DNA of 64,000 nucleotides. Source: an uncultured Pseudomonadales bacterium. Its GTDB lineage: Bacteria > Patescibacteriota > Microgenomatia > UBA1400 > Chazhemtobacteraceae. The position numbers and the translations under genes were made by a program. The notes under the pieces were generated by a model. That model was not told the origin of the DNA and searched no databases. It saw only the letters and a program-made list of their open reading frames with translations. The DNA is taken from positions 196,908 to 260,907 of the forward strand of contig CAZUBK010000001.1 of the NCBI GenBank assembly GCA_964618725.1, in the 5' to 3' direction. Of the stretch, positions 757 to 58,808 are shown in pieces (position 1 is the first letter of the stretch; every line of letters begins with the position of its first letter).

Positions 757-1626
757 TTAACCTTTTCGACGAAGTTTGGCTCTAATGGGGAGTTCGGAAT
801 CGAGAACTTGTTTTATTCCGTCTCCTCTTGCTTTTTCGAATCGGCGAATATCACGGATCATAATTTCAAAACCTTTTGGTTCTAGACTAGCTGCCTGATC
901 AGATCCCCAGAGGGAGCGATCCATGGTAATGTGTCGTTCGATAAGATTTGCACCCATCACGGCAGAGGCCACTGACAAGACGACACCTTTCTCGTGACCA
1001 CTGTAGCCGACAGGAATGTTAAACCGTTCCTTAAGGATATTGATGACAGCAAGATTTAGCTCTTCATCTTCGGATGGGTAGGTGGAGACACAGTGAAGAA
1101 GAATCAGTTGGTCGTCACCCAAGACATTAACTGCGTCGTCAACTTCACGCATAGTACTCATTCCGGTAGAGAGAATGATTGGTTTACCAGTTGATCGGAT
1201 ATAACGTAGAAGATTGTGGTCGGTTAGTGAGGCGGAGGCAATTTTGTAGGCCGGGACGTTGAATTCCTCTAAGAAATCAACACTCGCCTCATCCCAAGGT
1301 GAGGCGAACCAAACAATACCTTGTTCTTTAGCGAAACGGTCAATTTCACGGTACTGTTGCAGGCCTAACTCGAGACCGAGTTTGAGATCGCGATTAGTTG
1401 ACCCAAAGACGCTTTCACGTACTCGATTCAATTCTTCTTCTGTATAAACTACCTCGACAGTTCTTTTCTGGAATTTAACTGCATCAGCACCCGTATCAGT
1501 GGCCATCTTAATCAATTCTTTGGCCAGCTCGACGGAGCCATTATGATTAATGCCGATCTCGCCAATGATGTAACACGGGTTTCCATCACCAATCCTTTTT
1601 TCTCCAACCAAGACTTCTTTGCTCAT
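757..1626 (-). CDS. neuB: NeuB-family nonulosonic acid (sialic, legionaminic or pseudaminic acid) synthase. It is a short form lacking the C-terminal SAF/antifreeze-like domain.
   Basis: IIGEIGINHNGSVELAKELIKMATDTGADAVKFQ is the NeuB/PseI/LegI TIM-barrel signature. The protein is 289 aa against about 340-350 for canonical NeuB, and there is no room for a separate SAF ORF before the next gene. Confidence 0.8.
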   Translation of the reverse strand: MSKEVLVGEKRIGDGNPCYIIGEIGINHNGSVELAKELIKMATDTGADAVKFQKRTVEVVYTEEELNRVRESVFGSTNRDLKLGLELGLQQYREIDRFAKEQGIVWFASPWDEASVDFLEEFNVPAYKIASASLTDHNLLRYIRSTGKPIILSTGMSTMREVDDAVNVLGDDQLILLHCVSTYPSEDEELNLAVINILKERFNIPVGYSGHEKGVVLSVASAVMGANLIERHITMDRSLWGSDQAASLEPKGFEIMIRDIRRFEKARGDGIKQVLDSELPIRAKLRRKG

Positions 1627-1680
1627 GCGTCGTATACTACTAGTTGAAAATTACAAAAGCAAGAAGATTCTTCACAACGC

Positions 1681-2253
1681 ATGATAGCGATAGAAAAACA
1701 AATAAGTGAGAGTATCAAAACTAAACTGCTGATTCTGGAAGATGCCGATTTTATTGGTCAAATCAAAAAAATAGCACAGACTCTGGCTAGAACAATACAG
1801 TCGGGGAACAAAATACTAGTGGTGGGAAATGGAGGAAGTGCTGCCGACGCACAACATTTTGCGGCAGAATTCGTTGGTCGTTTTATGCGGGAAAGAAAGG
1901 GTTACCCAGTGATTGCCTTAACCACTGACAGTTCATTTTTGACGGCCTGGGGAAATGATGTGAGTTTTGACACTGTTTTTTCGAGGCAAGTTCAAGCGTT
2001 GTCTCAAACAGGCGATGCCTTGGTGGGGATCTCTACAAGCGGACAATCACTTAACGTGGTCAATGCATTTAAAATAGCAAGAGAACAGGGTTTAGAAACT
2101 GTGGCTTTACTAGGAAAAGGAGGAGGAGTGATGAAAGACATCGTCGATGAAGCATTGATTGTTCCCTCTGACACGACACCGAGAATCCAGGAAGCTCATA
2201 TCATGATCATTCATCTCATTTGCGATCTGGTTGAGACTTCACTATCGTCTTGA
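1681..2253 (+). CDS. gmhA: SIS-domain phosphoheptose isomerase (sedoheptulose-7-phosphate isomerase GmhA family).
   Basis: VVGNGGSAADAQHFAAEF and ISTSGQSLNV motifs and the roughly 190 aa size fit GmhA/DiaA-type SIS proteins. Confidence 0.75.
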   Translation: MIAIEKQISESIKTKLLILEDADFIGQIKKIAQTLARTIQSGNKILVVGNGGSAADAQHFAAEFVGRFMRERKGYPVIALTTDSSFLTAWGNDVSFDTVFSRQVQALSQTGDALVGISTSGQSLNVVNAFKIAREQGLETVALLGKGGGVMKDIVDEALIVPSDTTPRIQEAHIMIIHLICDLVETSLSS

Positions 2254-3505
2254 TCGGCATGGCTTGACTGATCCAGTGAGTGTCGTAAAGGAGGATACCG
2301 GGTCGAGTGCCATTTCGTAACAGTGAACGCCGAGTGGCAGGATCGTGAAGATTGATCTCGATATTAGAGTATTCATCAAAAGTCATGCCATCGGGGATAC
2401 CGAGAGTGACCCTAAAATAGTAGGTACCCTGATTAAGGGAAAAGTCATGTGGCGGGAAAAAAGAGAAAGTGGTTTGGTAAATACCGGGACGGCGTTTAGC
2501 GAGAAGTCGTGGATTATTGTCGGTATCAGAAGAAAAAAAGATGTAGTTTTCCCTTTGATCAGTAAGTGAGATGCCGATGTGCGCTCCAATGATTGGAGTC
2601 TTGATCTCGTACTCGATATGAACCTTGATTGGTTCAAAGATATCAAAGTGAGATGAGGGCTCATTTTTAGTATTGGTAACTTCAATGGAACGAAGCTGCT
2701 GCTTAATGTCTGGGTGACTCTTAAAAGTGTATTTAATTTGCTGAAGGTCGGTTTTGTGATGTAAGTAGAGTTTGACTATTTCAGAAGTCGGACCGATGGC
2801 TTTAACAATACCTTTGTCGATGTATAAGGAGCGTTGACAAAGATTTTGAATTGCCCCTAGATTGTGACTAATGAATAAAACTGTTCGTCCTTCTTGGGTT
2901 GTAACCTGACTGATTTTCCCAAGACACTTCTTTTGGAATGCGGCATCACCGACGGCGAGGACTTCATCAATTAAGAGAATCTCGGGCTCGAGGTGGGCTG
3001 CGACAGCAAAAGCCAACCGCATGTACATACCTGAGGAATAATGTTTAACGGGAGTATCGAGAAAAGTCTCAATTCCAGAGAAGTCAACTATTTCGTCAAA
3101 TTTGCTTTTGATTTCTCGGCGAGTCATACCCAGAATAGCGCCATTTAAAAATATGTTCTCTCTGCCTGTGAGTTCTTGGTGGAAACCAGTACCGACTTCA
3201 AGAAGACTAGCTAGCCGACCACGGAGAGTGATATTACCTCGAGTGGGAGGGGTAATACGACTGAGAACTTTGAGAATAGTACTTTTACCCGCTCCATTAC
3301 CGCCGATGATACCCAGAGCCTCACCTTGATTGACATCAAAGGTCACATTCTTAAGAGCCCAGAACTCACTTTCTTTCAGTGAAGTAGTTTGCTTACTAAA
3401 AAGTCTGGGTAATTTGACCAGAGTGTCACGCAGGGAGAGATATTTAGTCTGTTGGCCTTTCTTATACTTTTTATAGAGACCGCAAACTTCAATTATGGGT
3501 TTCAT
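2216..3505 (-). CDS. wzt: ABC transporter ATP-binding protein for glycan export (Wzt/TagH type). It has a C-terminal extension of about 180 aa, plausibly a carbohydrate-binding domain.
   Basis: Walker A GGNGAGKST, ABC signature LSGGMYMRLAFA and Walker B LLIDEVLAVGD are present. The 429 aa length against about 250 for a bare NBD gives the extension. A Wzm permease gene lies immediately downstream on the same strand. Confidence 0.85.
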   Translation of the reverse strand: MKPIIEVCGLYKKYKKGQQTKYLSLRDTLVKLPRLFSKQTTSLKESEFWALKNVTFDVNQGEALGIIGGNGAGKSTILKVLSRITPPTRGNITLRGRLASLLEVGTGFHQELTGRENIFLNGAILGMTRREIKSKFDEIVDFSGIETFLDTPVKHYSSGMYMRLAFAVAAHLEPEILLIDEVLAVGDAAFQKKCLGKISQVTTQEGRTVLFISHNLGAIQNLCQRSLYIDKGIVKAIGPTSEIVKLYLHHKTDLQQIKYTFKSHPDIKQQLRSIEVTNTKNEPSSHFDIFEPIKVHIEYEIKTPIIGAHIGISLTDQRENYIFFSSDTDNNPRLLAKRRPGIYQTTFSFFPPHDFSLNQGTYYFRVTLGIPDGMTFDEYSNIEINLHDPATRRSLLRNGTRPGILLYDTHWISQAMPIKTIVKSQPDRK

Positions 3506-4320
3506 ACAAGGTCAGCAAAATATTTTTCTGTGTGCTTGAAGTAAGATAGGCCGACAAAGAAACAAAATAGAGAAACGAGTAAGGCTATGGTCAGTGATGC
3601 CGGTTGGAAGTGGCCGATCTGAGTCAAGATAATTCGCGAGGACTCGATTACACCCGTAAGAGGATTGAGGCTAAGAAAGAGCTTACCCAATGGTCTAACT
3701 ATATCGGTTGGATAAATAACGGGAGTGAGAAAAATGAGAATCTGAATAAAGAAAGGTAAAACGTAACGGACGTCGCGATATTTAACATTGAGTGAAGCCA
3801 ATAGCAAACCTAGACCGCAAGCCGTGGTGGCTACAATAAGTAGACTTAGGGGCACAAGGAGGATAGACCATATACTTGGTATATATCCATTTATCAAGGT
3901 AAAGGCTAGAAGAAGGACAAAGTTGATAAGGAAGTCGACAGTGCTGGTAAGCACAGAGGAAATAGGAAGAATAACTTTAGGAAAGTAGGCTTTTTTGATT
4001 ATGTTTTCATTCTCGATGAGAGAGTTACTGGCTGAAGTTAGTGCCGAAGAAAAGAAATTCCAATAGACGAGCCCAAAGAAGACAAATAGAGAATAAGGTA
4101 AGTCGCCGGACGAGATTCTGGCGATATTGCCAAAAAAGATAGTAAAGATTACTGTAGTTAAAACAGGCTGGAGGACAGCCCATACGACGCCGAGAAAGGT
4201 TTGTTTGTAGCGGACTTTTAGGTTACGCCAAACAAAGATAAGAAAGAGGTCACGAAACTGCCACAACTCGGTAAGATCGAAGAAAAGTTGCTGTTTTGGT
4301 TTGATGATAGTAACTTGCAT
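3502..4320 (-). CDS. wzm: ABC-2 type transporter permease (Wzm/TagG family) for polysaccharide or teichoic-acid-like export.
   Basis: It is a 272 aa polytopic membrane protein with an ABC-2 family N-terminus (FWQFRDLFLIFVWRNLKVRYKQTFLGVVWAVLQP) and a 4-nt overlap with wzt. Confidence 0.8.
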   Translation of the reverse strand: MQVTIIKPKQQLFFDLTELWQFRDLFLIFVWRNLKVRYKQTFLGVVWAVLQPVLTTVIFTIFFGNIARISSGDLPYSLFVFFGLVYWNFFSSALTSASNSLIENENIIKKAYFPKVILPISSVLTSTVDFLINFVLLLAFTLINGYIPSIWSILLVPLSLLIVATTACGLGLLLASLNVKYRDVRYVLPFFIQILIFLTPVIYPTDIVRPLGKLFLSLNPLTGVIESSRIILTQIGHFQPASLTIALLVSLFCFFVGLSYFKHTEKYFADLV

Positions 4321-4325
4321 CGTAG

Positions 4326-5402
4326 CTATTTTATACTCTTGAGTCGTTGATTAACAAATCTCTTGAAATCAGGAAAACTTTTGGGGAGGAAAATATGCTC
4401 GGTGGAAATGAGGCGCAGTTTAGTAACTAAATCTGGATCACGGGCGACGAGAGGATACAAACCAATGTTGGCGTAGAATGAATCTTGATCCTGTGGGTAC
4501 ATCAGCGTTGTACTAATGATGCCTATATTGAATTCTAGTTTAGGATGAAGCAGAAGTTCGGCTGGAAGCACATTTAGTTTCGGGTCGGCCAGTTTTTCTA
4601 GATCCTCAGAAAGTGAGACTATTACTCTTGGGTGTTTCTTGAAAATGATTTGACCTTCTTTCGGGTACTTAATTTTCAAGAAATTAACAACCTTGGTTAA
4701 GTATAGATTGCGTTTCTTGGGATCAATGTAGCGATTGTCAGAATCTCCGTCGACAAGAATCAAAACTTTGTGACTGGTGATAGAGCGGCCAAAAAACCTT
4801 CTTTTTATGATGTTGTATTTCCTGTAATTGACTTGTGGAGTAAGGGACTCGATATGATATAAGTTGAAAAATTGGTTCGATAGTGTGGCCGCAGATGTAC
4901 GATCGCGGAGAACAACTTTTACTCCATCAAGACCATAGACAGTTCTCAGCAATAGGGTTTCCCAAGGACGGTGGGGTAGCTGATTGGAAGAAGGAGAGAC
5001 ACTATAAAAGTAGATTTGATTTTGCCGGGAAAGTTTTTGTATTATCTTAAACCCTGTTTCCCAAAAGATCTGGCTGAAGAAATAAATATTTGCATGTTTG
5101 ATCTGAGAGAAGTGTTTTTGGAAAAAATGCTCGAACTTGCGTCGATGATACAAAACAGTCAGAGGTGAGGGTGAAACAACAGGAGAGTTGAGATATGGGA
5201 GAAAAAGTACCTTGACCTTTTGATAAATAGGAAATTGTTTCACTAGTTCAAACAAGGATGATTCACTGATCACTAATGTCACTGAAGAAAAGGGTATTGG
5301 TCGAGTAGAGAGAATTTCCAGGACTTGGTTGAGGCTGGTGTAATTGGCGCAGAAGAAATAATGTTTATCCTTTTTGGACACTGGCTTATGGGAAGTACAC
5401 AA
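4326..5402 (-). CDS. Putative GT-B-like glycosyl or glycerophospho transferase with an HP motif (TagF/KpsS/sialyltransferase-like), function unknown.
   Basis: This is a 358 aa soluble protein with D-rich LILVDGDSDNRY followed by KKHPRV. That resembles the D/E-D/E-G plus HP motif pair shared by bacterial sialyltransferases, capsule Kdo-transferases and TagF-type enzymes. It sits next to wzm/wzt and near neuA/neuB. Confidence 0.4.
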   Translation of the reverse strand: MCTSHKPVSKKDKHYFFCANYTSLNQVLEILSTRPIPFSSVTLVISESSLFELVKQFPIYQKVKVLFLPYLNSPVVSPSPLTVLYHRRKFEHFFQKHFSQIKHANIYFFSQIFWETGFKIIQKLSRQNQIYFYSVSPSSNQLPHRPWETLLLRTVYGLDGVKVVLRDRTSAATLSNQFFNLYHIESLTPQVNYRKYNIIKRRFFGRSITSHKVLILVDGDSDNRYIDPKKRNLYLTKVVNFLKIKYPKEGQIIFKKHPRVIVSLSEDLEKLADPKLNVLPAELLLHPKLEFNIGIISTTLMYPQDQDSFYANIGLYPLVARDPDLVTKLRLISTEHIFLPKSFPDFKRFVNQRLKSIK

Positions 5403-5406
5403 AAAC

Positions 5407-5435
5407 TTGTGAAACGTAATCTTATTACCTAGAAT
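5407..5435 (+). promoter_or_regulatory. Sigma70-like promoter TTGTGA-17-TAGAAT for the SDR/TIM-barrel/SDR operon.
   Basis: Hexamers read directly: ttgtga, a 17-nt spacer, then tagaat, ending about 7 nt before the GTG at 5443. Confidence 0.35.
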
Positions 5436-5442
5436 ACAACCT

Positions 5443-6240
5443 GTGAGAAGAAAAGAGAAGAGTAAAAAGACAGTTTTTGAACTTGCCTCATTGAAAGGGA
5501 AAACAGCAGTCGTGACTGGAGGGGGGGGACATCTAGGGTATCAAATGAGTCTGTGTCTCTTGGAACTGGGGGCTGAAGTGATAGTAATAGGACAAACGGC
5601 AGAGAAGATCAAGGGATTAGTAAGGCTGTTTGGAAAAAAGATAAGCTTCTTGCAAATAGATCTGAACGACAGGGAAGCAATTACGTCACTTAAGAAAAGG
5701 TTGCCAAAGTCCTTGGATATACTGATAAACAACGCCTATACTTGGCCAAAGAATGTTCATCTGGAATCTCTTGATTGGGACGACGTCGTCAAGACTTTTG
5801 TTACCGGTTCTATCTCGCCGCTTTTTTTGTCGAAAATCGCATTTGAGAAAATGAAGAAAGGAGGATCGATCATTAATGTTGCCTCAATGTATGGAGTGGT
5901 TTCTCCAGATTTTAGGATATATCGAGACAGTGGAATGGGGAATGCCGCCCATTATGGAGCAACTAAGGCGGCACTTATTCAGATGACAAAATACTTAGCA
6001 GTAAAGGGTGGGCCATTGAATATTCGGGTAAATGCGATAAGTCCGGGACCTTTTTCCCGACCAGGTTCGTTTGATAATGGTAAGGAGTGGTTTCATGAAG
6101 AATTAATAAACAAGGTTCCTTTAGGACGGATTGGTGAGAATTGGGAACTGAAGGGGGTAATTGCCTTGTTGTCCAGTGATCTTGGGACTTACATAACAGG
6201 TCAAAACATATCAGTTGATGGTGGCTGGACCATTTGGTAA
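5443..6240 (+). CDS. SDR-family NAD(P)-dependent oxidoreductase. The start is uncertain: GTG at 5443 or TTG at 5488.
   Basis: TGGGGHLGY glycine-rich Rossmann motif, YGATKAAL (YxxxK) and NNAY are present. The gene contains a G8 homopolymer at 5521..5528. Confidence 0.8.
   Translation: MRRKEKSKKTVFELASLKGKTAVVTGGGGHLGYQMSLCLLELGAEVIVIGQTAEKIKGLVRLFGKKISFLQIDLNDREAITSLKKRLPKSLDILINNAYTWPKNVHLESLDWDDVVKTFVTGSISPLFLSKIAFEKMKKGGSIINVASMYGVVSPDFRIYRDSGMGNAAHYGATKAALIQMTKYLAVKGGPLNIRVNAISPGPFSRPGSFDNGKEWFHEELINKVPLGRIGENWELKGVIALLSSDLGTYITGQNISVDGGWTIW
5521..5528. repeat. G8 homopolymer inside the SDR gene (encodes the TGGGGH part of the glycine motif).
   Basis: Read directly as gggggggg. It is a candidate slipped-strand tract. 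Confidence 0.6.
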
Positions 6241-6245
6241 ACAGG

Positions 6246-7091
6246 ATGAGTAAGAAGATAACAATTGGTATATTTCAAGGCAGACTAACACCTTCTAAAG
6301 GAAGAGGGATTCAGTTTTTTCCTTTTGAAGAATGGAGAGAAGAGTTTCCAATGATGAATAAGCTAGGACTAGATGAAGTTGAATTTATATTTGATATGGA
6401 GAGACTTGAGGAGAATCCCCTATGGATGTCGGGAGGGACTAAGGAGATTGCGAAGTTGGCCAGAGAGAATCAGATTGAGATAAAACATATTTGCGCAGAT
6501 TATTTTATGAGAAAACCGTTTCACAAATTGAAACCAGAGGAAAGAAAAATAAACGTGCAATTACTTAAGGCCTTGTTATACCAAGCCAAGGAAGTGGGAG
6601 CGGAGGACATTGAGATTCCGTTACTCGATAACTCAAGCATGAAAACTGAGGAAGACAAAAAGATATTTGCTGATGCGCTTCTTGAGGGTCTTGAGGAAGC
6701 AAAACATTTAGAAATGAATATTAGCTTGGAAGCAGACCTGCCGCCGGAGGAGTTTCAAAGATTCCTATCGAATATGGCCTCCCCCAACTTGAAAGTAACG
6801 TATGATAGTGGGAATAGTAGTGCGCTAGGTTATGATGCCAAGGAAGAACTGGAGGTATTGGGGAAGTACTTAAGTAATTTTCATCTGAAGGATCGTGTTA
6901 AAGGGAACGGAACTGTACCACTAGGAACCGGGGATGCGAATTTTGATGAGGTATTCTTGGGATTGAAAAAGGCGAACTATCGTGGCAGTATAACGCTACA
7001 AGTAGCGCGGGGTGAGGAGGGAAGGGAAGAAATGACGACAGCAGAACATATTGTCTTCCTTAATCAATATTTAGAGAAATATCAGCTTTAA
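6246..7091 (+). CDS. Xylose-isomerase-like TIM-barrel sugar(-phosphate) isomerase/epimerase. The track ORF starts at TTG 6234; the ATG at 6246 is preferred.
   Basis: The roughly 280 aa size, the FHLKD (H-x-D) motif and the conserved E/D pattern are typical of the AP-endonuclease-2/xylose-isomerase-like fold. It sits between two SDR genes. Confidence 0.6.
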   Translation: MSKKITIGIFQGRLTPSKGRGIQFFPFEEWREEFPMMNKLGLDEVEFIFDMERLEENPLWMSGGTKEIAKLARENQIEIKHICADYFMRKPFHKLKPEERKINVQLLKALLYQAKEVGAEDIEIPLLDNSSMKTEEDKKIFADALLEGLEEAKHLEMNISLEADLPPEEFQRFLSNMASPNLKVTYDSGNSSALGYDAKEELEVLGKYLSNFHLKDRVKGNGTVPLGTGDANFDEVFLGLKKANYRGSITLQVARGEEGREEMTTAEHIVFLNQYLEKYQL

Positions 7092-7093
7092 AG

Positions 7094-7927
7094 ATGAAAC
7101 GAGAGACATTGGGATTGTTTAGCTTGAAAGGGAGAAAAGCGATTATTACCGGAGGGGCTGGCTTTTTGGGCCCTCGTCACGCAGAAGCGCTTTTGGATGC
7201 AGGTGCTGAGGTGGTTCTGGTTGATATCAACAAAGATAGATTAAAGGAAACTACTGACCGACTAAGATCTAAATATGGGAAAGGGGTCTATGGATATCGA
7301 TGTGATATCACTAGTGAGAAGAAAGTGATGGCCTTTTTTGAGAAAGTGACTAAGAAACATGGCTTTTTTGATATTCTGATTAATAATGCGGCAAATAATC
7401 CTATTGTAACTTCTGAGGGATTAAAGAATTTGACTCGATTCGAAAACTTCCCCGTTAGTACTTGGAATGAAGACTTCGCAGTTGGAGTGACAGGGGCTTT
7501 TCTTTTGTCGCGCTTCTTCGGTCAGGAAATGGCTAAGAATAAAAGGGGTGTGATTCTTAATATAGCCTCAGAGTTGAGCACTACGGCGCCAAATCAGAGT
7601 TTATACAGAAAGAAGGGGGTATCGGAGGACAAACAACCAGTTAAACCGGTTTCTTATTCTGTCGTCAAACATGGAATAGTCGGTTTGAGCAAATACTTAT
7701 CTACATACTGGGCAGATAGGAAGGTCCGAGTTAATTCAGTATCTTTTGGTGGGGTATACAACAATCAACCGCCCGGATTTTTGAGGAGAATAAACAAACT
7801 GATACCAATGGGGCGGATGGCAAAAGATGGTGAGTATAAAGGGATAGTACTTTTCCTTTGTAGTGACGCCTCATCATATATGACGGGAGAGAATGTTGTA
7901 ATAGATGGTGGGCGAACGACCTGGTAG
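7094..7927 (+). CDS. SDR-family oxidoreductase.
   Basis: ITGGAGFLG Rossmann motif, NNAA, and a YSVVKHGIVG segment (YxxxK degenerate to H-type). Confidence 0.75.
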   Translation: MKRETLGLFSLKGRKAIITGGAGFLGPRHAEALLDAGAEVVLVDINKDRLKETTDRLRSKYGKGVYGYRCDITSEKKVMAFFEKVTKKHGFFDILINNAANNPIVTSEGLKNLTRFENFPVSTWNEDFAVGVTGAFLLSRFFGQEMAKNKRGVILNIASELSTTAPNQSLYRKKGVSEDKQPVKPVSYSVVKHGIVGLSKYLSTYWADRKVRVNSVSFGGVYNNQPPGFLRRINKLIPMGRMAKDGEYKGIVLFLCSDASSYMTGENVVIDGGRTTW

Positions 7928-7933
7928 AGAATC

Positions 7934-8737
7934 CTATTCTTTCTTTTTAGCTTTCCTCCAGATCTGATAGATTTCGTCTTTAACAATTCGCTGAAAGCCT
8001 AGTTTATTGAGAATGATTTCACTGTTTCTGATTTCTTTCTTGGTCAGCATATCTTGAAAGGGGTGGAACTCAATAAAAAGAGTTTTGAAGTGTTCCAGAT
8101 CTGTTTGGAACTCTTCGATGAACTTTTTCTCGGCGCCTTCGATATCCATAATAAGAGTGTCGAATTTGAGTTTGTATTTCTTTTCAAGCTGCTGAATAGT
8201 AGTAGTGGGTATGGAGACCGACTGATCGGTCTGGCGGATCTGGCTACCTCCGACAATCAGTTGATGGATGAAAAAGCGAACTTTTTTATCTTTGCTGACG
8301 ACTTTGTTTTCGATATTGAAACCGAGATTGTTTCTGTTTTTATTTATCATGAGATAGGGAATCAAATAAGGGTTAGCTTCGGCAACTACATATCTTCGCT
8401 TATCAGTGAGAAGACTATTAGCGAGACAGGTAACCACACCAATACAACCGCCTAATTCTAGAACACTGCTGTTTGGATTAAGCAGTTTAGAGATGTACTT
8501 AATCTCGCGTTCTTCATATGTTCGCCAAAGAAAACGGCCGCGAAAAGTTTTATTGGTTAACTCGTAGGGAATAGTAAAACGCAAGTTGGCGAGTCGGTAG
8601 TCTCTGAAGAAAATGTCAAAAAGAATCCCTCCAATGAAGCGCTTGATATCGCGATATGCGTAATGAAGGTACTCTCCAGGGGTCAGGGTGGGAGTGAAGT
8701 TAATTGATTTAAGAAGTAGTTTTATTAGCTTATTCAT
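7934..8737 (-). CDS. FkbM-family SAM-dependent methyltransferase.
   Basis: LELGGCIGVVTCLANS matches the FkbM motif I region. It is about 267 aa and is one of three FkbM paralogs in the window. Confidence 0.75.
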   Translation of the reverse strand: MNKLIKLLLKSINFTPTLTPGEYLHYAYRDIKRFIGGILFDIFFRDYRLANLRFTIPYELTNKTFRGRFLWRTYEEREIKYISKLLNPNSSVLELGGCIGVVTCLANSLLTDKRRYVVAEANPYLIPYLMINKNRNNLGFNIENKVVSKDKKVRFFIHQLIVGGSQIRQTDQSVSIPTTTIQQLEKKYKLKFDTLIMDIEGAEKKFIEEFQTDLEHFKTLFIEFHPFQDMLTKKEIRNSEIILNKLGFQRIVKDEIYQIWRKAKKKE

Positions 8738-9396
8738 TTATCTGTTTTTTTTTGAAAAAGATGTTCGGCTACAATCCAATCCTCTAGTTCATCTATCTCT
8801 ACTGAAGATTGTGGATCCATTGTGTAGATCCCAATTCTACCACCGAGACGGTTCTGATACTTTTCTAGAATTTGACGTTTGGTTAAGTAGAAGGCTCCAT
8901 TCTCCATAAGCCAGCCTTCGAACTCTTGCCTCCGAGGACGATTATATGGATCGTAGTTAACCGGTTCGTTGTTAGTGTTCCAAAAGAAACGTTTCCAGGA
9001 GACAGCAGAAAGAAGAGAATCATATTTCCTTTGTTTGAATAGTTTTATGGCTTCGTCTAGATCGAGAGAGGTGGTAAAGGGTGAAGTGGCTTGCAGGGTA
9101 ACAAGAATATCAAAATCAAGGTTTTGCATGAAATGGAGCATGACTGATTCGGTACTGGCTGTATCGGTGGCCAGTTCAGCTGGTCTATCGATAACCTTTG
9201 TACCAAGAGAAAGACAGATATCCTTGATTTGGGGGTGATCGGTGGAAACCCAAACTTCATCAATCAGCGAGCAATCTTGAGCTGCTTTAATGGTCCAGTA
9301 ACAAAGAGGGTGACCGGCGAATGGCTTGATATTTTTTAGGGGGATGGACTTTGAACCACCGCGAAGGGGGATTAGAGCGATAATAGACTTTTTCAT
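8734..9396 (-). CDS. neuA: Acylneuraminate cytidylyltransferase family (CMP-nonulosonic acid synthetase, NeuA/CTP_transf_3).
   Basis: The N-terminal ALIPLRGGSKSIPLKNIKPFAGHPL matches the NeuA/KdsB-type cytidylyltransferase signature. It has a 4-nt overlap with the FkbM gene. Confidence 0.8.
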   Translation of the reverse strand: MKKSIIALIPLRGGSKSIPLKNIKPFAGHPLCYWTIKAAQDCSLIDEVWVSTDHPQIKDICLSLGTKVIDRPAELATDTASTESVMLHFMQNLDFDILVTLQATSPFTTSLDLDEAIKLFKQRKYDSLLSAVSWKRFFWNTNNEPVNYDPYNRPRRQEFEGWLMENGAFYLTKRQILEKYQNRLGGRIGIYTMDPQSSVEIDELEDWIVAEHLFQKKTDK

Positions 9397-9464: not shown

Positions 9465-9493
9465 CTATCCAATATTTAGAGTTCATGTATAAT
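9465..9493 (+). promoter_or_regulatory. Candidate promoter with a perfect TATAAT -10 (about 9488..9493) for the orphan gene.
   Basis: tgtataat is read directly and the -35 is weak. It lies about 35 nt upstream of AGGAGG (9515..9520) and ATG 9530. Confidence 0.3.
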
Positions 9494-9529
9494 ATGAGAT
9501 ATCTGTTTAACTGCAGGAGGTTCTTTTAC

Positions 9530-10813
9530 ATGGTAAGTAAGCTAACAAAGAGACCCAAGAAAAACAATATTTCAGATCAACCTATTGGACTATATGTCTT
9601 TAGCCAATTAGGTACGGTTAAAGAGAAACTGAGAGTAAAAGATGACGGGCAAGCTGTTGCCTTTCAAATAAATAACTCCAGTATTCAAGCTGATATGCTC
9701 TGTGTAATTGATGCATATGGCTTCGAAACACGAATTCTCAACCTAAGAGTGAAAAATTTAGAATCCCTCCCTCTCCTCGACAATCTTTTAAAATATGACA
9801 AAGTCGCTAGCTGGGTTGGTGAAATCCAGATTGAAGTAAAGTTTTTCGCTCTTGAGGAAACAATGTTAACGGCTAAGATTAAACGAGATACTGACTTGTA
9901 CACCAAGAGAGACAATATCTATTCTCATTCTGAACCTGAACTAATTAATGCTATCAAGGAGGTAGTTTCTGTTTGTTCAGAGATTAGAGGCACATCGATA
10001 CAATACGTGTCCAATCAAACAAAAATAACCGCTACTTTATCGCCGTTGGATATGTTGCTTAAATCACTAGACGAACGAGACTCAATAAGTTTATCCTGGG
10101 CAGAAAAAAGTTTAATAGAACAACTAGAAATGTTAAGACGCGTTGGTGCTTTCACAGCTTTTTCAGCGATTGCTCAGTTTTTTGGTGGTTATCAAGAATT
10201 AGCGTTAGTCGAGGTAGAAAATAGACAGGATGTTTTTTCTGATGACTATTATGACGATATGCGTTCACTTGTGTTTTATTCTCTTACTGATAAAGTCGGT
10301 ATGTCTGCTGCCTGGTTATCTGAGGCTATTAAGTTGATCTCTAATTGGCATTACTCCCAAGGACCCTCGAGATCAGATAACCATCTCCCCTTATATGCAA
10401 CGTCACACCTAGAAATTCGGCTAAGGCATAAATTTGATAGTAATGAGATCTTGATGATAAATTCAGAATTAGGGCGACAGCTTACATATAGCACTCAGAT
10501 CGGGTTTTATCATCCCGATGAAAGCCACCATTTTAAGGGACATTGGTATACAGAGGTCCGCAATTTGGGTAGTCACGGAATCAATGTCTTTCGGAAAGAG
10601 CCAATTATCCGCACAGTAAAAAAATGGACTGGAAAGAAAACAGATCAGATTGTTAGCTATAAACTAATTCTTGCCGAAGAAGAAGCTGCGAAGAACTTAC
10701 CGGAACTAGTGAAGATTATTTCTCTAATTATTCCTCCCCTTCAAGCAAGACACTTTACTGAAATGCTCAAATCAGTAGTTGTTGATGAATTGAGATTTCC
10801 TTTTGATATTTGA
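9530..10813 (+). CDS. Hypothetical soluble protein of 427 aa with no recognisable family. The track ORF starts at 9485; ATG 9530 is preferred because AGGAGG sits 9 nt upstream.
   Basis: It is a long ORF on the opposite strand to both neighbours, has its own -10 box and a strong RBS, and I see no catalytic motif. Confidence 0.6.
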   Translation: MVSKLTKRPKKNNISDQPIGLYVFSQLGTVKEKLRVKDDGQAVAFQINNSSIQADMLCVIDAYGFETRILNLRVKNLESLPLLDNLLKYDKVASWVGEIQIEVKFFALEETMLTAKIKRDTDLYTKRDNIYSHSEPELINAIKEVVSVCSEIRGTSIQYVSNQTKITATLSPLDMLLKSLDERDSISLSWAEKSLIEQLEMLRRVGAFTAFSAIAQFFGGYQELALVEVENRQDVFSDDYYDDMRSLVFYSLTDKVGMSAAWLSEAIKLISNWHYSQGPSRSDNHLPLYATSHLEIRLRHKFDSNEILMINSELGRQLTYSTQIGFYHPDESHHFKGHWYTEVRNLGSHGINVFRKEPIIRTVKKWTGKKTDQIVSYKLILAEEEAAKNLPELVKIISLIIPPLQARHFTEMLKSVVVDELRFPFDI

Positions 10814-11895: not shown

Positions 11896-13323
11896 TTAAT
11901 GTGACTCGATAAAAGAATCGATCGTGTCACACACATATTCTATCTGCTTAGCAGTAATGCCGGGATGTAATCCTATCCAGATGGCATTTTGCAAAAGGTG
12001 GTTCGAGTTGGAGAGACTACCTATTTGGCGATGTTTGATATCTTGATATGCTGGCTGATGAAGCAGATTGCCGCCAAAAATTCGTCGAGTAGCAACTTTG
12101 TGGGTTTCTAGATGATTGATCAGATCGGTCGAATTGAAATGCTGATCGGGTCGAAGATTCAGAACATAGCCAAAAGGAGAGGGATTGATATTGGTGGGGA
12201 CCTTAATGGGGAAAAAGAGATGGTCGTATTTTTCTAAACGTTGACGGAAGATGGCATAGTTTCTCCTTCTTGTAACTATGAAATTGGCGACCTTATCTAT
12301 TTGAGCTAGCCCTATGGCTGATTGCATTTCGGTGAGTCTCATATTGTAGCCAATTTCGGAGTAGATGTATTTATGATCGTAACCTAGTGGCATTTTGCCA
12401 AGTTGCCAAGCAAAACGCTTCTGACAGGTATTGTCGTCTCCTGGCTTGCACCAACAGTCTCGTCCCCAATCGCGGAAGGTGTTAATTGTACGATAGAGAA
12501 GTGCATTGTTAGTGAAAATGACGCCTCCCTCACCAGTAGTAATCTGATGAGCAGGAAAGAAACTGACAGTACTAATATCGCCGAAAGAGGTGATGGGTTT
12601 GTTGTCGATGGTTGCTCCCAGAGCATCACAGGAATCTTCGATGAACCAGAGGTTATGTTTTTTGGCAAGGTTACGAATTTTATCGGCTTGAAATGGGAAA
12701 CCAAGGGTATGAGCGAGCATAATGGCTTTTGTCTTTGGCGTAATCGCCTCTTCGATTGATTTCGGAGAGACGTTTAGAGTATGAACATCGACGTCAACAA
12801 AAACGGGGACTGCCCTATTTTGAATAATGGGATTGACAGTGGTAGGGAAGCCGCAGGCGGCAGTGATTACTTCATCTCCCGGCTTGATTTGTCGCTCTTG
12901 GAGCTTTTTTGAAGTGAGAGCGCTGAAGGCTAAGAGATTGGCGCTAGATCCCGAGACAGTTAAAGAGACAAATTGGTTACCTGTAAATTGGCGAAGTTTC
13001 TGAGAAAATTGAGCGGTCTTAACTCCTTCCGTAAGCCAGAAATCCAGGGCGACATCAGCCATGTTAATCATCTCCTGCTCGTCGTAGGTTGCCCCTGAGG
13101 CTTTAATGTAAGTCATACCAGGAGTGAACTGGGTATTGGCGTGATAATCAGAATGAAATTTTTTAACAAGATCAAAAATCCTTTTCTTATCTTTGTTTTT
13201 CTGATGGTTAAGATTTAGGGCAGTAGGCTCTTGAGTGCTGACAGTGACAACAAAAAACTCTAACAGCAGATGTAGGAGGAAATAGAAAGGTTTACCTAGA
13301 TAAATTAATAGCCGAGCGAACAT
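11896..13323 (-). CDS. rfbH: CDP-6-deoxy-D-glycero-L-threo-4-hexulose 3-dehydrase (E1; RfbH/DdhC/AscC family, DegT-like fold). The N-terminal roughly 40 aa may be an extension or a mis-start.
   Basis: SGSSANLLA, KPGDEVITAACGFPTTVNP, FRDWGRDCWCKPGDDNTCQKRF and GYDHKYIYS match RfbH blocks almost residue for residue. The PLP-lysine position is His (SFFPAHQITTGEGG), as in E1 and ColD PMP-dependent dehydrases. Confidence 0.85.
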   Translation of the reverse strand: MFARLLIYLGKPFYFLLHLLLEFFVVTVSTQEPTALNLNHQKNKDKKRIFDLVKKFHSDYHANTQFTPGMTYIKASGATYDEQEMINMADVALDFWLTEGVKTAQFSQKLRQFTGNQFVSLTVSGSSANLLAFSALTSKKLQERQIKPGDEVITAACGFPTTVNPIIQNRAVPVFVDVDVHTLNVSPKSIEEAITPKTKAIMLAHTLGFPFQADKIRNLAKKHNLWFIEDSCDALGATIDNKPITSFGDISTVSFFPAHQITTGEGGVIFTNNALLYRTINTFRDWGRDCWCKPGDDNTCQKRFAWQLGKMPLGYDHKYIYSEIGYNMRLTEMQSAIGLAQIDKVANFIVTRRRNYAIFRQRLEKYDHLFFPIKVPTNINPSPFGYVLNLRPDQHFNSTDLINHLETHKVATRRIFGGNLLHQPAYQDIKHRQIGSLSNSNHLLQNAIWIGLHPGITAKQIEYVCDTIDSFIESH

Positions 13324-13367: not shown

Positions 13368-14327
13368 CTAAAGTGAGCGAGGAGAAGTCTGGATGGTGTA
13401 GAGTTTCTTGTTCGTTCTGAACCAATCAACCGTTTCTTCCAAGCTTTGATCTAGAGAAGAAACGGGTGACCAACCGAGAAGTTTCTTGGCAAGTGATACA
13501 TCTGCCCAACATTGAGAGTCGTTGATCGGAGCGAATTGGTCAGTGACTTGAGGTAAAACTTTCGGATTAATTATTTTGACCAGTTTGTTAACAAGGTCGC
13601 CCACTCTGGTTGGTTGACCACTTCCTATGTTAATGACTTCACCTTGTTTTAGGGCAATAGAACTGGCTCTAAGATATGCGGTAACCACATCGGCTAAATA
13701 AACAAAGTCACGTACTGGTGATGAAGAAATAGTGAATGACTTGTCGTTCAGAAAAGAAAAGATAGTTCTAGAAACTAAACGACGCACGTCTTCGTAAGGC
13801 CCGAAAGTGGTAAATAGTCTAAGAGTGCAGACGGGAAGCTGATAGTCCTTAGCAAACTCGCAAGCAAGATGAGTGGATTTTATTTTGGCAGTGTCATAGG
13901 GATTGCGAGGTGTCCCAAGAATTGATTCGATACGGCAGCCCGGCAGATCTGCGTATTCGTAGACACTACCAGTATTTACAAAAGAAGTTAGATCAACATT
14001 AAGAGCTGCCTTGAGGAGATTTTCCGTACCCAGTACGTTAGATCTAAGGATGAGATCTTTATCATCTTGGTCTCGGTAGACACCATAGGTGGCGAGATTG
14101 AATATATGATTTGGGTTGATCTCTTTAATGGTTTTCTGCAGAGAAGTAAGATCGGTCAGGTCGCCCTGAACGAGATGGTGCCGACTACTATGTTTGGGTA
14201 AACGCCAGATATTTGACTCAGGACGAATAAGAGAAGATACATCAAGACCTCTGCTAACTAGCTCTCGAACGATCGCGGATCCGATGAAACCGGTCGCCCC
14301 TGCAATAAGATACTTCTCTCTTTTCAT
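13368..14327 (-). CDS. NAD-dependent epimerase/dehydratase (extended SDR). It is a candidate CDP-paratose or CDP-abequose synthase-type 4-reductase.
   Basis: GATGFIGSAIVREL and YDTAKIKSTHL (YxxxK) are present, and it is adjacent to rfbH. Confidence 0.75.
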   Translation of the reverse strand: MKREKYLIAGATGFIGSAIVRELVSRGLDVSSLIRPESNIWRLPKHSSRHHLVQGDLTDLTSLQKTIKEINPNHIFNLATYGVYRDQDDKDLILRSNVLGTENLLKAALNVDLTSFVNTGSVYEYADLPGCRIESILGTPRNPYDTAKIKSTHLACEFAKDYQLPVCTLRLFTTFGPYEDVRRLVSRTIFSFLNDKSFTISSSPVRDFVYLADVVTAYLRASSIALKQGEVINIGSGQPTRVGDLVNKLVKIINPKVLPQVTDQFAPINDSQCWADVSLAKKLLGWSPVSSLDQSLEETVDWFRTNKKLYTIQTSPRSL

Positions 14328-15254: not shown

Positions 15255-15881
15255 TTACACGATTAACTTTGTCAGTCTTTTGACTAGTTTGGCAGGGTTA
15301 CCAAATAATAGGCTATTGAAGGCAAAAGATTGAAACACTACGCTCCCTGCTCCAATAAGGCAATTGTTGCCAAGAACCACCCCTTTCAGAATTTGGGAGT
15401 TCATACCTATAAAGACATTGCGGCCAATTCTAACCGGCGAAGTCTTGATATTGCTTTGTGAGTAACGACGGTTTCCTGTTTTAGTTGGGTGAAAATCGGT
15501 GTCAATGATGCTTGAGTTGGCACCAATTAAAGTATTGGCGCCTATATCGATTCGTTTGGCGGCACAAATAATACCACCAGTGATACCGACATCTTTGCCG
15601 ATGTTAATCACAGCATCGGTTTTCCAAGTCGTAAGAATAAGTGGATGATTGACTCCTAGAGGGTTGGAATAGGTCCAACTCCTGACCTCAACACGATCGC
15701 CAATAATGATGCGGCTATTGCGATGGCGAATGATTTTAGGAAAGCCATACCATTTGGTTCCCTGACCCACTTCTACTCCATTAAGCTTTAGATACAGCAT
15801 CACGAATGGGTGATAAACGATTCTCCATAGCTCATACCAGGCTTTCCAAGGGGTATCTAGGATCAGATTGAGATGAGACAT
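15255..15881 (-). CDS. Hexapeptide-repeat (left-handed beta-helix) acyl/acetyltransferase, probably a sugar O-acetyltransferase.
   Basis: Repeating [LIV]G-x4 hexads (IGANTLIGANSSII, IGMNSQILKGVVLGNNCLIGAGSVV). Confidence 0.7.
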   Translation of the reverse strand: MSHLNLILDTPWKAWYELWRIVYHPFVMLYLKLNGVEVGQGTKWYGFPKIIRHRNSRIIIGDRVEVRSWTYSNPLGVNHPLILTTWKTDAVINIGKDVGITGGIICAAKRIDIGANTLIGANSSIIDTDFHPTKTGNRRYSQSNIKTSPVRIGRNVFIGMNSQILKGVVLGNNCLIGAGSVVFQSFAFNSLLFGNPAKLVKRLTKLIV

Positions 15882-15882
15882 A

Positions 15883-17619
15883 TTATTGTTCTAGGTAATA
15901 AAGATTTTTCCCTATTGATTGTGCCTGGCATACAAGTGGCTCCTCGGCACAAGTTTTGGTTGTGGCGAACCAGAAAGAAGACTGTGGGGTGGGAGCAGAG
16001 GCATACGTACAATTAATGTTAAAGATGGCCATAAATTGCTCATTCGTACTGGCATGCCAAATGCCTTGGTCAAGAATGTAAAGTGTGTGGGGACCGGTAT
16101 CGGCACAGAAGGCAATGATATCTTGATTCTGAGGATGTCTATCTTTGATCCAATCATAAATATTGGTTTTTCCCCTGGCGTAGGCTATCTCCTGGGGCGA
16201 AAGGTAATGCCAGATACTGTAAGTGGTCTTCATGCCTGAAATGAAGTAAAAGAGGGCAAAGAATGAGACAAGAAGGGTATACCAGCTGAGTCTAGTCGCC
16301 GGTAGAACGATTAAGAGAGTAAACAAGATCTGTAAGTAGAAGAAGTAGCGAGGCAAGAAACCTGAATAAAAACGAAGTAGGAATAATTCCAAGGTAATAC
16401 CTACTAAAAGAAAGATTGCAAAGTAGCGTTGTTTTTTGTTACCGAACCTAAATATCAAGCCGACAGAGGCGATCCAAAGGACAGATATGGGCAGTTTGAT
16501 GGTAATTTGATTGATAATGGTAGGGAGACTTCGAAGTGTGACCGGAACAGTCCAGCCGTCAAAGAAGGTTTCTGTGGCGGCACAAAAAGCCAGTTTACAG
16601 GGGAAGAAAAAGGGGTAGACAGGGTTACCGGTGAAGTAAAAGTTGTTTAGATACCAATATCCACCAGAAATAAATAGAATTGCAAATAACAAGATCATGT
16701 TCCTTGCTTTAAACACTTCCAGTAAAATCGCCTGATTCTTTTTGTAAAAGAGAAATCCAAGCGTAATGAGTCCGTAGGTGAGTAGGACAGAGAGTCCGGT
16801 GAATTTCGTTGAGATAGAAAGACCTAAAAAGAAGACAGCGGTTAACAGGATAGAAGACTTCTTGTTTTGATAAAAGTCAAAGAGACTGACAATTCCTAAG
16901 GCAATGAAGGATGCGAGAGAGTAATCAGTATAGCCTGACGCTCCTATGATCAGGAGATCCTTCATCAAGTAAAGATAAATGACAACAAATAGATTGGCTG
17001 ACCAGTGACCAAAGTGATACTTAGTGACTGCATAGATACTGGAGATGCTTGTCAGAAAGATAAGGAAGTGGAGGAGACGAGCCGGCGAGTAAGATCTGGC
17101 TAAAGAAAAAACTAGGGCAAGGAAGGTTTCAATAAATCGGGGAACATAGGTATAGATTTCTGAGTTACTACCAAAGCCCCAGGTGTTCTGATTGAGTAGT
17201 TGGAATGGAGAAATAAAGTGATAACGGACTTCGTCGGTAAGATAAGGGGGGAGAGAACTTTTGACAAACAAGGCAGGGAAAAGAGTAAGTATGGTTAAGG
17301 TAAGAAATGGATTTTTTAGGTAAAAAGAAAAGAGACTTTGATAATCTTTGTTTTTCAGATAGCTTGCTAAGCAGATCAAAGCAGGGAGGGTCAAACTTAA
17401 GGCGACGTATATCGGCTTGAAAGGTAAAAAGAAATGAAGGAGGTACCAAATAAAAACAATAGGAGCCAGACTATATAACCAGTAAACTGGACGATAGAGA
17501 CTACTTGATTTAAAAAGATGCCGATTAATGTAACTTCCAACGATATCTAGAGATAGGAAGATAAGAACGGTGATGAGGAGTAGAAGGGGGGTTAATGGCT
17601 TGAAATAATCAATTAGCAT
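15883..17619 (-). CDS. GT-C fold polytopic membrane glycosyltransferase (PMT/ArnT-like). It has about 11-13 TM helices plus a C-terminal soluble domain.
   Basis: Extremely hydrophobic N-terminal 430 aa, an acidic first-loop motif LTDEVRYHF, and a C-terminal roughly 140 aa hydrophilic domain. It is a tandem paralog of 17609..19504. Confidence 0.65.
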   Translation of the reverse strand: MLIDYFKPLTPLLLLITVLIFLSLDIVGSYINRHLFKSSSLYRPVYWLYSLAPIVFIWYLLHFFLPFKPIYVALSLTLPALICLASYLKNKDYQSLFSFYLKNPFLTLTILTLFPALFVKSSLPPYLTDEVRYHFISPFQLLNQNTWGFGSNSEIYTYVPRFIETFLALVFSLARSYSPARLLHFLIFLTSISSIYAVTKYHFGHWSANLFVVIYLYLMKDLLIIGASGYTDYSLASFIALGIVSLFDFYQNKKSSILLTAVFFLGLSISTKFTGLSVLLTYGLITLGFLFYKKNQAILLEVFKARNMILLFAILFISGGYWYLNNFYFTGNPVYPFFFPCKLAFCAATETFFDGWTVPVTLRSLPTIINQITIKLPISVLWIASVGLIFRFGNKKQRYFAIFLLVGITLELFLLRFYSGFLPRYFFYLQILFTLLIVLPATRLSWYTLLVSFFALFYFISGMKTTYSIWHYLSPQEIAYARGKTNIYDWIKDRHPQNQDIIAFCADTGPHTLYILDQGIWHASTNEQFMAIFNINCTYASAPTPQSSFWFATTKTCAEEPLVCQAQSIGKNLYYLEQ

Positions 17620-30410: not shown

Positions 30411-31007
30411 ATGGACAAAGCAATATTTCTTGACCGTGATGGGATAATAAATGAGTTTGTTTATTATCATGATATTGATACAATAGATGCGCCAAGAGGC
30501 GCTTCGCAGGTAAAGTTGGTACACGGAATAAGTCAATTGATTAAGGCAGTGAGAGAAATGGGGTTTAAAACTATAATTGCTTCAAATCAACCAGGGATGG
30601 CTTTGGGGAAATTAACTCGTGAATCTTTTGAGGGAATAACACAAAGAATTAAAAACTTGTTGGGTGAAGAGGGTGCCATATTAGACAACGAATATTACTG
30701 TACACACCATCCTTTTGGAATACATGAGTCTTTGGCGATACAATGCGATTGTCGCAAACCAGGAATTGGTATGTTTAAAAAGGCGGAGGATGAATTGGGA
30801 ATTGATCTGAAAAAGTCGTGGTTTATTGGCGATGGATTAACTGATGTCAAGGCAGGCTTCACAGCTGGCTGTAAGACGATTCTACGAGGTTTCCCTGATC
30901 AAACAGGATTTTTGGCTTTAGTAGAAAAGGAACTTGGAGACATTAAACCTGACTACATAATCCGAAAATTGCCTGAGGCAATAGAGATTATTCGCTCATA
31001 TGAATAG
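30411..31007 (+). CDS. gmhB: D-glycero-D-manno-heptose 1,7-bisphosphate phosphatase (HAD-IIIA, GmhB family).
   Basis: FLDRDGIIN (DxDGxxN HAD motif I), the roughly 190 aa size and its position beside the heptose kinase and nucleotidyltransferase. Confidence 0.75.
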   Translation: MDKAIFLDRDGIINEFVYYHDIDTIDAPRGASQVKLVHGISQLIKAVREMGFKTIIASNQPGMALGKLTRESFEGITQRIKNLLGEEGAILDNEYYCTHHPFGIHESLAIQCDCRKPGIGMFKKAEDELGIDLKKSWFIGDGLTDVKAGFTAGCKTILRGFPDQTGFLALVEKELGDIKPDYIIRKLPEAIEIIRSYE

Positions 31008-32734: not shown

Positions 32735-32741
32735 GAACTGA

Positions 32742-33863: not shown

Positions 33864-33870
33864 AAAGGTT

Positions 33871-55374: not shown

Positions 55375-55410
55375 GAATCGTCTCCTCAATGGGGACGATT
55401 TTTTTATTTT
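55375..55410 (+). terminator. Rho-independent terminator GAATCGTCTCC-tcaat-GGGGACGATT followed by TTTTTATTTT.
   Basis: A 10-bp stem followed by a T-tract. It overlaps the stop of the convergent GT-C gene. Confidence 0.5.
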
Positions 55411-58804: not shown

Positions 58805-58808
58805 AAGA

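Follow-up and report, generated by a model that had tools for sequence, protein, structure and literature searches.

The stretch of DNA considered here, which covers 64,000 nucleotides of contig CAZUBK010000001.1 from an uncultured member of the Patescibacteriota, and is referred to below as the window, carries a module of ten genes (Table 1) that centers on a NeuB-family synthase lacking the C-terminal SAF domain. All ten of the open reading frames (ORFs) named in an initial annotation of this DNA were present in the ORF listing, and the gene identities proposed for the module were borne out by scans of the Pfam and NCBIfam libraries. The module had also been described as distinct from the canonical neuABC, pse, and leg gene sets, which agrees with the lack of any NeuC-like match in the window, and with the identity of the nearby DegT-family protein (11896–13323), which is an RfbH equivalog (CDP-6-deoxy-4-keto-hexose 3-dehydrase, with a score of 611 bits where the cut-off is 423). 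Neither a NeuC-like epimerase nor a PseG-like gene was found in the 64-kb window, and no aminotransferase of the Leg/Pse type was found among the scanned ORFs, with approximately 20 ORFs, at 36.5–64 kb, lying outside the family-library scans.

Table 1. Genes of the module, in the order of their coordinates in the window (L086 is a syntenic sister locus).
Feature	Coordinates	Strand	Characteristics
SAF-less NeuB-family synthase	757–1626	(-)	289 aa; PF03102 only, E 1.9e-80, residues 38–272
GmhA-type ketose-phosphate/aldose-phosphate isomerase	1681–2253	(+)	190 aa; SIS_2; proposed aldose phosphate supplier
Wzt ABC-transporter ATPase with C-terminal carbohydrate-binding domain	2216–3505	(-)	ABC_tran + Wzt_C; syntenic in L086
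Wzm ABC-2 permease	3502–4320	(-)	ABC2_membrane; matches galactan and KpsM permease models
HP-motif GT-B protein, proposed CMP-ulosonate glycosyltransferase	4326–5402	(-)	358 aa; sub-threshold PF07388 only, E 0.004
SDR oxidoreductase 1	5443–6240	(+)	265 aa; adh_short_C2; 74.5% identical in L086
Xylose-isomerase-like TIM-barrel enzyme	6234–7091	(+)	AP_endonuc_2; proposed keto-sugar (phosphate) epimerase
SDR oxidoreductase 2	7094–7927	(+)	277 aa; adh_short_C2; 68.5% identical in L086
FkbM-family methyltransferase	7934–8737	(-)	267 aa; PF05050 + TIGR01444
NeuA/PseF-type cytidylyltransferase	8734–9396	(-)	220 aa; CTP_transf_3; without KdsC-type phosphatase domain

The absence of the SAF domain from the synthase, as first described, is confirmed by the protein itself, in which the chain stops 17 residues beyond the end of the Pfam match. 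It had been allowed that a SAF domain might be found fused to the synthase once a frameshift near position 757 was corrected, but the ORF that starts 12 nucleotides past the stop codon encodes a 512-residue protein with a methyltransferase domain. A search of 5.8 billion proteins recovered more than 8000 homologues, and the best 120 of these contain the NeuB domain alone, with a length of 278–326 residues (mostly 287–295), the sole exception being a 488-residue fusion of NeuB with an SIS domain. The C-terminal K-L-R-R is invariant across the synthase family, and a search for the SAF domain in the 64-kb window, which is a weak test, being based on one query, returned no match. Given the downstream methyltransferase ORF, the family-wide length, the invariant C-terminus, and the lack of a SAF match in the window, the missing domain is not an artefact of a frameshift, and the first and last of these observations also rule out a hidden SAF domain. 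The same synthase sequence is present on independent assemblies, and this, together with the family-wide retention of the length and C-terminus, the intact catalytic and metal-binding residues, and the unrelated ORF downstream, effectively refutes the idea that the protein is an assembly artefact, or the inactive remnant of a truncation, for which its short length alone would speak.

The lack of the domain had been interpreted as a local loss, and is rather the hallmark of a huge and highly conserved subfamily, which spans lineages of the candidate phyla radiation (CPR), Chloroflexi, Nitrospirae, Actinomycetota, and others, with the best 120 homologues being 62–75% identical to the window synthase across phyla. 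Approximately 30% of the 13,941 nonulosonic acid (NulO) synthases in UniProt have no SAF domain, and these cluster among environmental bacteria, in a survey that did not test their function (PMC8208679), so the lack of the domain was rightly observed, but had already been documented. The window synthase falls below the equivalog cut-offs of both NeuB (TIGR03569; 266.5 vs. 399.65 bits) and PseI (TIGR03586; 228.2 vs. 340.25 bits). Nor does it group with KdsA, as the initial annotation had considered possible, given that its matches to the DAHP-synthase models are remote (E values of 3e-5 to 2e-4, 21–23 bits) in comparison with the 3e-79 to NeuB, which rules out a KdsA-like identity. The best match in the Protein Data Bank (PDB) is 6NCS (165 bits), a SAF-less chain of 290 residues that was deposited as "N-acetylneuraminic acid synthetase", which we take to be a structural-genomics entry from Leptospira, and for which we know of no published function. 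This chain shares the length and the "LRRK" tail of the window synthase, but has "SDH" and "ASCD" motifs, as in the canonical enzymes, with no "KFQKR", and thus belongs to a different SAF-less branch.

When aligned with the NeuB of N. meningitidis (NmNeuB; PDB 1XUZ), as a representative of the canonical NeuB/PseI/LegI enzymes, the window synthase presents the same NeuB TIM-barrel domain, and retains the metal ligands His211/His232, the residues that bind phosphoenolpyruvate (PEP), that is, Lys51, Lys128, Ser131, Ser153, and Ser209, and also Glu23, Glu230, and Asp243; the equivalents of the catalytic Glu25/Glu234 are conserved. There are three changes relative to NmNeuB (Glu134 to Ser, Asn184 to Ser, and Phe112 to Trp). 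The synthase differs from the canonical enzymes in the lack of the SAF domain, and therefore of the Arg314/Phe288 contributed by the partner subunit, while the locus differs in that it has no gene of the NeuC type that would supply a free 2-acetamido sugar. The window synthase shares the "KFQKR", "SGH" (in place of "SDH"), and "W.G(S/T)D.AASLEP" motifs and an "R.KL(R/K)" tail with the synthetase of 3-deoxy-D-glycero-D-galacto-nonulosonate (Kdn) 9-phosphate of Prymnesium parvum, a SAF-less protein of 312 residues, whose sequence was taken from the supplement of PMC6200933. These motifs, and the serine that both short enzymes have at the position of Glu134 of NmNeuB, are absent from NmNeuB, PseI, SpsE, 6NCS, and the NeuB+SAF protein of a further locus (L088). 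An "S.S" motif is also common to the two short enzymes. The P. parvum synthetase uses mannose-6-phosphate, and free mannose is not converted to Kdn (PMC6200933).

The genomic context of the subfamily was compared in 82 loci, 80 of them from a scan in which each species was represented by one genome and two from look-ups, which were searched with profiles for partner genes. A KdsC-type HAD phosphatase is found near the short NeuB in 71 of the 82 loci, and adjoins it on the same strand in 58; the HAD is fused to the cytidylyltransferase in 23 loci, and to a GmhA-like SIS domain in five, and the NeuB::SIS fusion is found in one (P0040/L083). The other partners include NeuA (40/82), short-chain dehydrogenases/reductases (SDRs; 35/82), SIS proteins (23/82), Gfo/Idh/MocA oxidoreductases (22/82), and the TIM barrel, which is present in 16 loci, 11 of them with an SIS. 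The association of synthase and phosphatase parallels, by analogy, the Kdn-9-phosphate synthase/phosphatase and KdsA/KdsC pairs and, together with the fusions of NeuB and HAD with the SIS domain, speaks in favor of a sugar phosphate, provided by the isomerase, as the substrate. This coupling to the phosphatase and GmhA, which was missed in the first reading of the locus, is the main mechanistic clue to the sugar-phosphate substrate to which it points.

The companion genes had been considered unusual as a set, and this is true only of some of them. While the FkbM methyltransferase and the HP-motif transferase are restricted to a few lineages, the GmhA, the TIM barrel, the SDRs, and NeuA form a largely recurrent cassette (GmhA/TIM/SDR/(Gfo or SDR)/NeuA), which is found in Chloroflexi, CPR lineages (Peregrinibacteria, for example), Nitrospiraceae, Myxococcota, Acidobacteria, and Actinomycetota, with the order NeuA, NeuB, TIM, Gfo, SDR, GmhA being repeated in several Chloroflexi. 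The syntenic sister locus, L086, keeps the whole gene set, including Wzm/Wzt, at 45–75% identity. It also has the FkbM gene (63% identity), which is present in a longer form in L085, and is absent from the 80 genome-scan loci; the methylation of the acid is pure conjecture. A Taylorbacteria contig (ENA ERZ1305449) carries Capsule_synth, CTP_transf_3, Aminotran_4, TIM, SDR, HAD, SIS, and NeuB. In this contig, the fold-type-IV aminotransferase (Aminotran_4) lies between NeuA and the TIM barrel, and the cassette has a Capsule_synth transferase of the KpsC/KpsS type at its flank. This version suggests that a keto intermediate may be transaminated, to give an amino derivative of the same acid.

A variant of the cassette is found in L030, L039, L017, and L085 (Mycobacterium seoulense), in which NeuB, HAD, the TIM barrel, and SDRs (with an SIS as well in L030) are accompanied by an acetolactate-synthase-like enzyme of approximately 610 residues, dependent on thiamine diphosphate (ThDP), which takes the place of the missing cytidylyltransferase. 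Two of these cassettes, L030 and L085, lie beside 3,6-dideoxyhexose genes of the RfbH type. The TIM barrel, SDR, and SIS are common to the cytidylyltransferase and ThDP cassettes, and thus probably act before activation. Some ThDP enzymes (YerE, ErwE, MMAR_2332, and MyGE) use long alpha-keto acids as donors in the formation of acyl-branched sugars, and it has been proposed that such donors are joined to a 3,6-dideoxy-4-keto sugar in the synthesis of erwiniose, caryophyllose, and "gastriose" (PMC9306805). By analogy, a 3-deoxy-2-ulosonic acid would fit a donor of this kind, with a PEP-dependent NeuB-type synthase as its source, rather than a pyruvate aldolase. The window resembles these clusters in having RfbH beside the module, but differs in the presence of NeuA, and no ThDP enzyme was found in it among the Pfam-scanned ORFs. 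An acyl-branched sugar route was rejected for the window on this basis; the module therefore belongs to the cytidine monophosphate (CMP) branch, and the acid is presumably activated as the CMP-sugar, rather than serving as an acyl donor. Genes similar to RfbH also adjoin the short NeuB in a number of other loci (L010, L044, L077, and L086, in addition to L030 and L085).

The SIS protein of the module appears, by sequence, to be an orthodox GmhA, given its 207.9 bits on the gmhA model TIGR00441, just under the cut-off of 209.45, and its matches to the GmhA of C. jejuni (1TK9; 185 bits) and B. pseudomallei (2XBL; 180 bits). A separate set of the nucleoside diphosphate (NDP)-heptose type, at 30.4–35.3 kb (30411–35254), holds a second, divergent SIS isomerase, together with a GmhB-like HAD phosphatase (30411–31007), a nucleotidyltransferase, an HddA-like GHMP kinase, a Gfo-like protein, and a protein similar to transaldolase/fructose-6-phosphate aldolase (FSA). 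As this set has an SIS of its own, the GmhA linked to NeuB is not explained by the NDP-heptose pathway, and the GmhA of the Taylorbacteria contig has neither a kinase nor a nucleotidyltransferase as a partner. Most simply, the aldose partner of the synthase would be heptose-7-phosphate or one of its derivatives, which would give a ten-carbon acid, although a GmhA paralogue could also act on fructose-6-phosphate, to yield a nine-carbon acid of the Kdn type, or on ribulose-5-phosphate, to yield an eight-carbon acid similar to 3-deoxy-D-manno-octulosonic acid (Kdo). In the separate set, the pairing of transaldolase and isomerase recalls the lincosamide GDP-octose route (LmbR/N/P/K/O), and by this analogy its product may possibly be an octose rather than a heptose.

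Among the enzymes expected to tailor the sugar, the TIM-barrel protein has the L-ribulose-5-phosphate 3-epimerases as its best named relatives (NCBIfam models; PDB 3CQH UlaE, E 2e-9). No accessory gene of the cassette is more conserved than the second SDR (49–57% identity across phyla), and the first probably substitutes for the Gfo/Idh/MocA oxidoreductase, given that loci with two or three SDRs, as in the window, lack a Gfo. The SDR/TIM/SDR trio probably acts on a sugar phosphate or the free acid, and the most economical guess from the respective families would be an oxidation, an epimerization, and a reduction. The TIM-barrel gene probably starts, in fact, at the ATG at 6246. The GmhA and Wzt genes are convergent, and their 3' ends share 38 nucleotides (2216–2253).

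The window NeuA scores 127 bits on the PseF model (cut-off of 206), with weaker matches to the KdsB models. Its orthologue in L086 is a 385-residue NeuA::HAD fusion with a KdsC-type domain (L086 12575–13732), in which residues 5–222 are 65% identical to the window protein, which ends where the linker starts.

The HP-motif protein belongs to a rare family, of which only 25 relatives were recovered when 1.84 billion representatives were scanned exhaustively with HMMER, while a word-seeded homologue search returned the query itself alone, and the comparison of the family profile with the PDB sequences produced only spurious matches. The window protein has 351–358 residues, and Asn121, His250, and Pro251 are, apart from the initial Met, the residues that are invariant in the 21 aligned sequences. 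Six of these 21 match the GT38 polysialyltransferase family (PF07388), with a best E value of 9.1e-8, and the window protein scores 17.1 bits, below the gathering threshold of 23.3. The single-sequence AlphaFold model was unusable, with a predicted local distance difference test (pLDDT) score of 37.6, and the alignment-based model (AF2) was used instead, which has a GT-B fold (pLDDT of 90.3), and UDP-GlcNAc 2-epimerases, OtsA, and UGTs as Foldseek neighbors, at modest template modeling (TM) scores of 0.3–0.44, with no solved sialyltransferase among the top matches. The HP-motif proteins adjoin CMP-NulO genes in all four of the informative contexts; one relative is found in the sister locus L086, another in L087, in the order Wzt_C, HAD, relative, and a third in L088, beside a canonical set of CTP_transf_3, NeuB+SAF, and NeuC. 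The protein thus resembles the GT38/HP-motif CMP-sugar transferases in its invariant His-Pro, its GT-B fold, its weak similarity to PF07388, and its CMP-NulO neighborhood, and differs from GT38 in its sub-threshold Pfam score, the lack of a solved sialyltransferase among the top structural matches, and the small size of its family. Given the similarity to GT38, the fold, and the neighboring genes, it is best read as a putative CMP-ulosonate glycosyltransferase of a rare family. The Wzm and Wzt genes, the latter with a Wzt_C domain, lie within the module in the window, and beside it in L086. In Wzt systems, the carbohydrate-binding domain recognizes the residue that terminates the chain.

Given the domain content, conservation, fusions, and synteny observed, we propose, with a probability of roughly 55%, that the module serves to make, CMP-activate, and attach a 3-deoxy-2-ulosonic acid, and that the route is a phosphorylated one, like that of Kdn and Kdo, and unlike that of the bacterial N-acetylneuraminic acid (Neu5Ac). 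In the order suggested here, the GmhA-type isomerase would turn a ketose phosphate, most likely sedoheptulose-7-phosphate, into an aldose phosphate, which the SAF-less synthase would join to PEP, to form a 3-deoxy-2-ulosonate phosphate. The latter would then be dephosphorylated, by the KdsC-type HAD in the relatives, and by a phosphatase from elsewhere in the present case, while the SDR/TIM-barrel/SDR trio would tailor either the sugar phosphate or the free acid. The NeuA-type enzyme would form the CMP-sugar, and the HP-motif transferase would add the sugar to the glycan exported by Wzm/Wzt, where the Wzt domain may read it as a cap. The initial annotation had suggested that a different 2-keto-3-deoxy acid is made and activated here, which is probably correct.

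A number of points weigh against this proposal. The main weakness is the absence of the phosphatase, given that no KdsC-type HAD was found in the whole 64-kb window at any threshold, which leaves the phosphorylated route incomplete at this locus. Either the phosphatase gene must lie elsewhere, or another enzyme, such as the GmhB-like HAD of the NDP-heptose-type set, must take its place, or the phosphorylated model is wrong in this case. The SIS is near NeuB in just 23 of the 82 loci, and the TIM barrel in just 16, so these would be accessories rather than core parts. The window synthase is only 31% identical to the Kdn-9-phosphate synthetase, which is no more than its identity to PseI or NeuB, and the sugar-phosphate substrate of this exact subfamily is a prediction. 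For the SDRs and the TIM barrel, the roles suggested are guesses based on the families to which they belong, and the function of the acid as a chain cap read by Wzt_C, while plausible, has gene adjacency as its sole basis.

The product may also be ordinary CMP-Kdn, in which case the short NeuB would be a Kdn-9-phosphate synthase acting on mannose-6-phosphate, with the GmhA, SDRs, and TIM barrel serving other sugars of the glycan, although this appears rather unlikely. The existence of Kdn-containing teichulosonic acids in streptomycetes counts in its favor. So does the NeuB of Streptomyces scabiei, which has no SAF domain (PMC8208679), as well as the characterized P. parvum synthetase, SAF-less and with shared motifs, and the B. 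thetaiotaomicron pathway, in which the Kdn-9-phosphate synthase, Kdn-9-phosphate phosphatase, and CMP-Kdn synthetase (Q8A712/Q8A711/Q8A710) provide the same three activities as the core of the family (PMC6200933), that is, a synthase (verified as SAF-less in P. parvum) that is accompanied by a CTP_transf_3 enzyme and a phosphatase of the KdsC type. However, the window has no phosphatase, and its cassette adds GmhA, the TIM barrel, and SDR/Gfo genes, which are not needed for Kdn; the SDR, TIM, and Gfo genes are conserved within the cassette across phyla, and the NeuB::GmhA and HAD::GmhA fusions tie to the pathway an isomerase that mannose-6-phosphate does not require. The identity to the Kdn enzyme is also only 31%. 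An eight-carbon, Kdo-like acid, with the SIS in the role of arabinose-5-phosphate isomerase and KdsA replaced by the short NeuB, is improbable. The KdsC-type phosphatases that accompany the family, the KpsC/KpsS-type transferase that flanks the Taylorbacteria cassette, and the weaker KdsB matches of the NeuA would all be consistent with this acid, but the SIS protein is of the GmhA type (SIS_2), and not the KdsD/KpsF type, and the synthase is unlike KdsA beyond the remote DAHP-synthase matches.

A canonical N-acylated nonulosonic acid, whether Neu5Ac, legionaminic acid (Leg), or pseudaminic acid (Pse), is more improbable still. This would involve a degenerate synthase fed by neighboring genes, and there are indeed an epimerase/dehydratase (13368–14327), the DegT-family gene, and a hexapeptide acyltransferase (15255–15881) within 6.5 kb. 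However, the DegT protein, as an RfbH equivalog, is a 3-dehydrase rather than an aminotransferase, which rules out feeding of the Leg/Pse type by this gene, the window has no NeuC- or PseG-like gene, the synthase is far under the NeuB and PseI equivalog cut-offs, and its family is coupled to a phosphatase. Within the proposed phosphorylated route, a more specific version may be put forward tentatively, as a doubtful but concrete possibility, in which the synthase would join D-glycero-D-manno-heptose 7-phosphate, or else an epimer produced by the TIM/SDR enzymes, to PEP, to form a ten-carbon acid that is CMP-activated and displayed on the Wzm/Wzt glycan, while the same kind of acid, in the sister cassette, would feed the ThDP enzymes that build long acyl-branched sugars. 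To our knowledge, such an acid would have one carbon more than any sugar of the sialic acid type, and nothing on SAF-less NeuB with GmhA, or on ten-carbon ulosonic acids, was found in the literature searched.

What is new here is the coupling of the subfamily to a phosphatase and GmhA, the rare family of the HP-motif transferase, and the absence of the phosphatase from this locus. The SAF-less NeuB proteins, which make up approximately 30% of the nonulosonic acid synthases, are routinely labeled as N-acetylneuraminate synthases, whereas the evidence suggests that a large SAF-less subfamily works on sugar phosphates, with many of its members being wired to a heptose-phosphate isomerase and keto-sugar tailoring enzymes. 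If this is true, an acidic sugar that is different, and may be new, is being mis-assigned when genomes of environmental bacteria and the CPR are surveyed for "sialic acid" capacity. The ten-carbon version, if true, would represent a widespread class of bacterial surface sugars that has so far gone unrecognized, and, from the link to the ThDP clusters, such acids may also have a second fate. The module offers concrete proteins for the study of these questions, that is, the 289-residue synthase, the GmhA paralogue, and the rare HP-motif transferase.

Other genes of the window are also worthy of mention. Three large ORFs (578, 631, and 442 residues), at 15883–19504 and 9485–10813, match no Pfam family; the 578-residue ORF has a 50% identical counterpart in L086, while the 442-residue ORF, which lies between NeuA and a GT4 gene, is not matched by any ORF in the same place in L086. 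Among the glycosyltransferases, there is a radical SAM protein of the B12-binding type, with 490 residues (22313–23785), which has no more than sub-threshold matches, to HpnJ, BchE, and P-methyltransferase-type proteins, and may be a C-methyltransferase that acts on a sugar. Four PMT_2 membrane proteins, similar to ArnT/dolichyl-phosphate-mannose transferases, are encoded at 46767–48548 and 55404–60428, three of them in tandem, which suggests an extensive modification of periplasmic or extracytoplasmic glycans.

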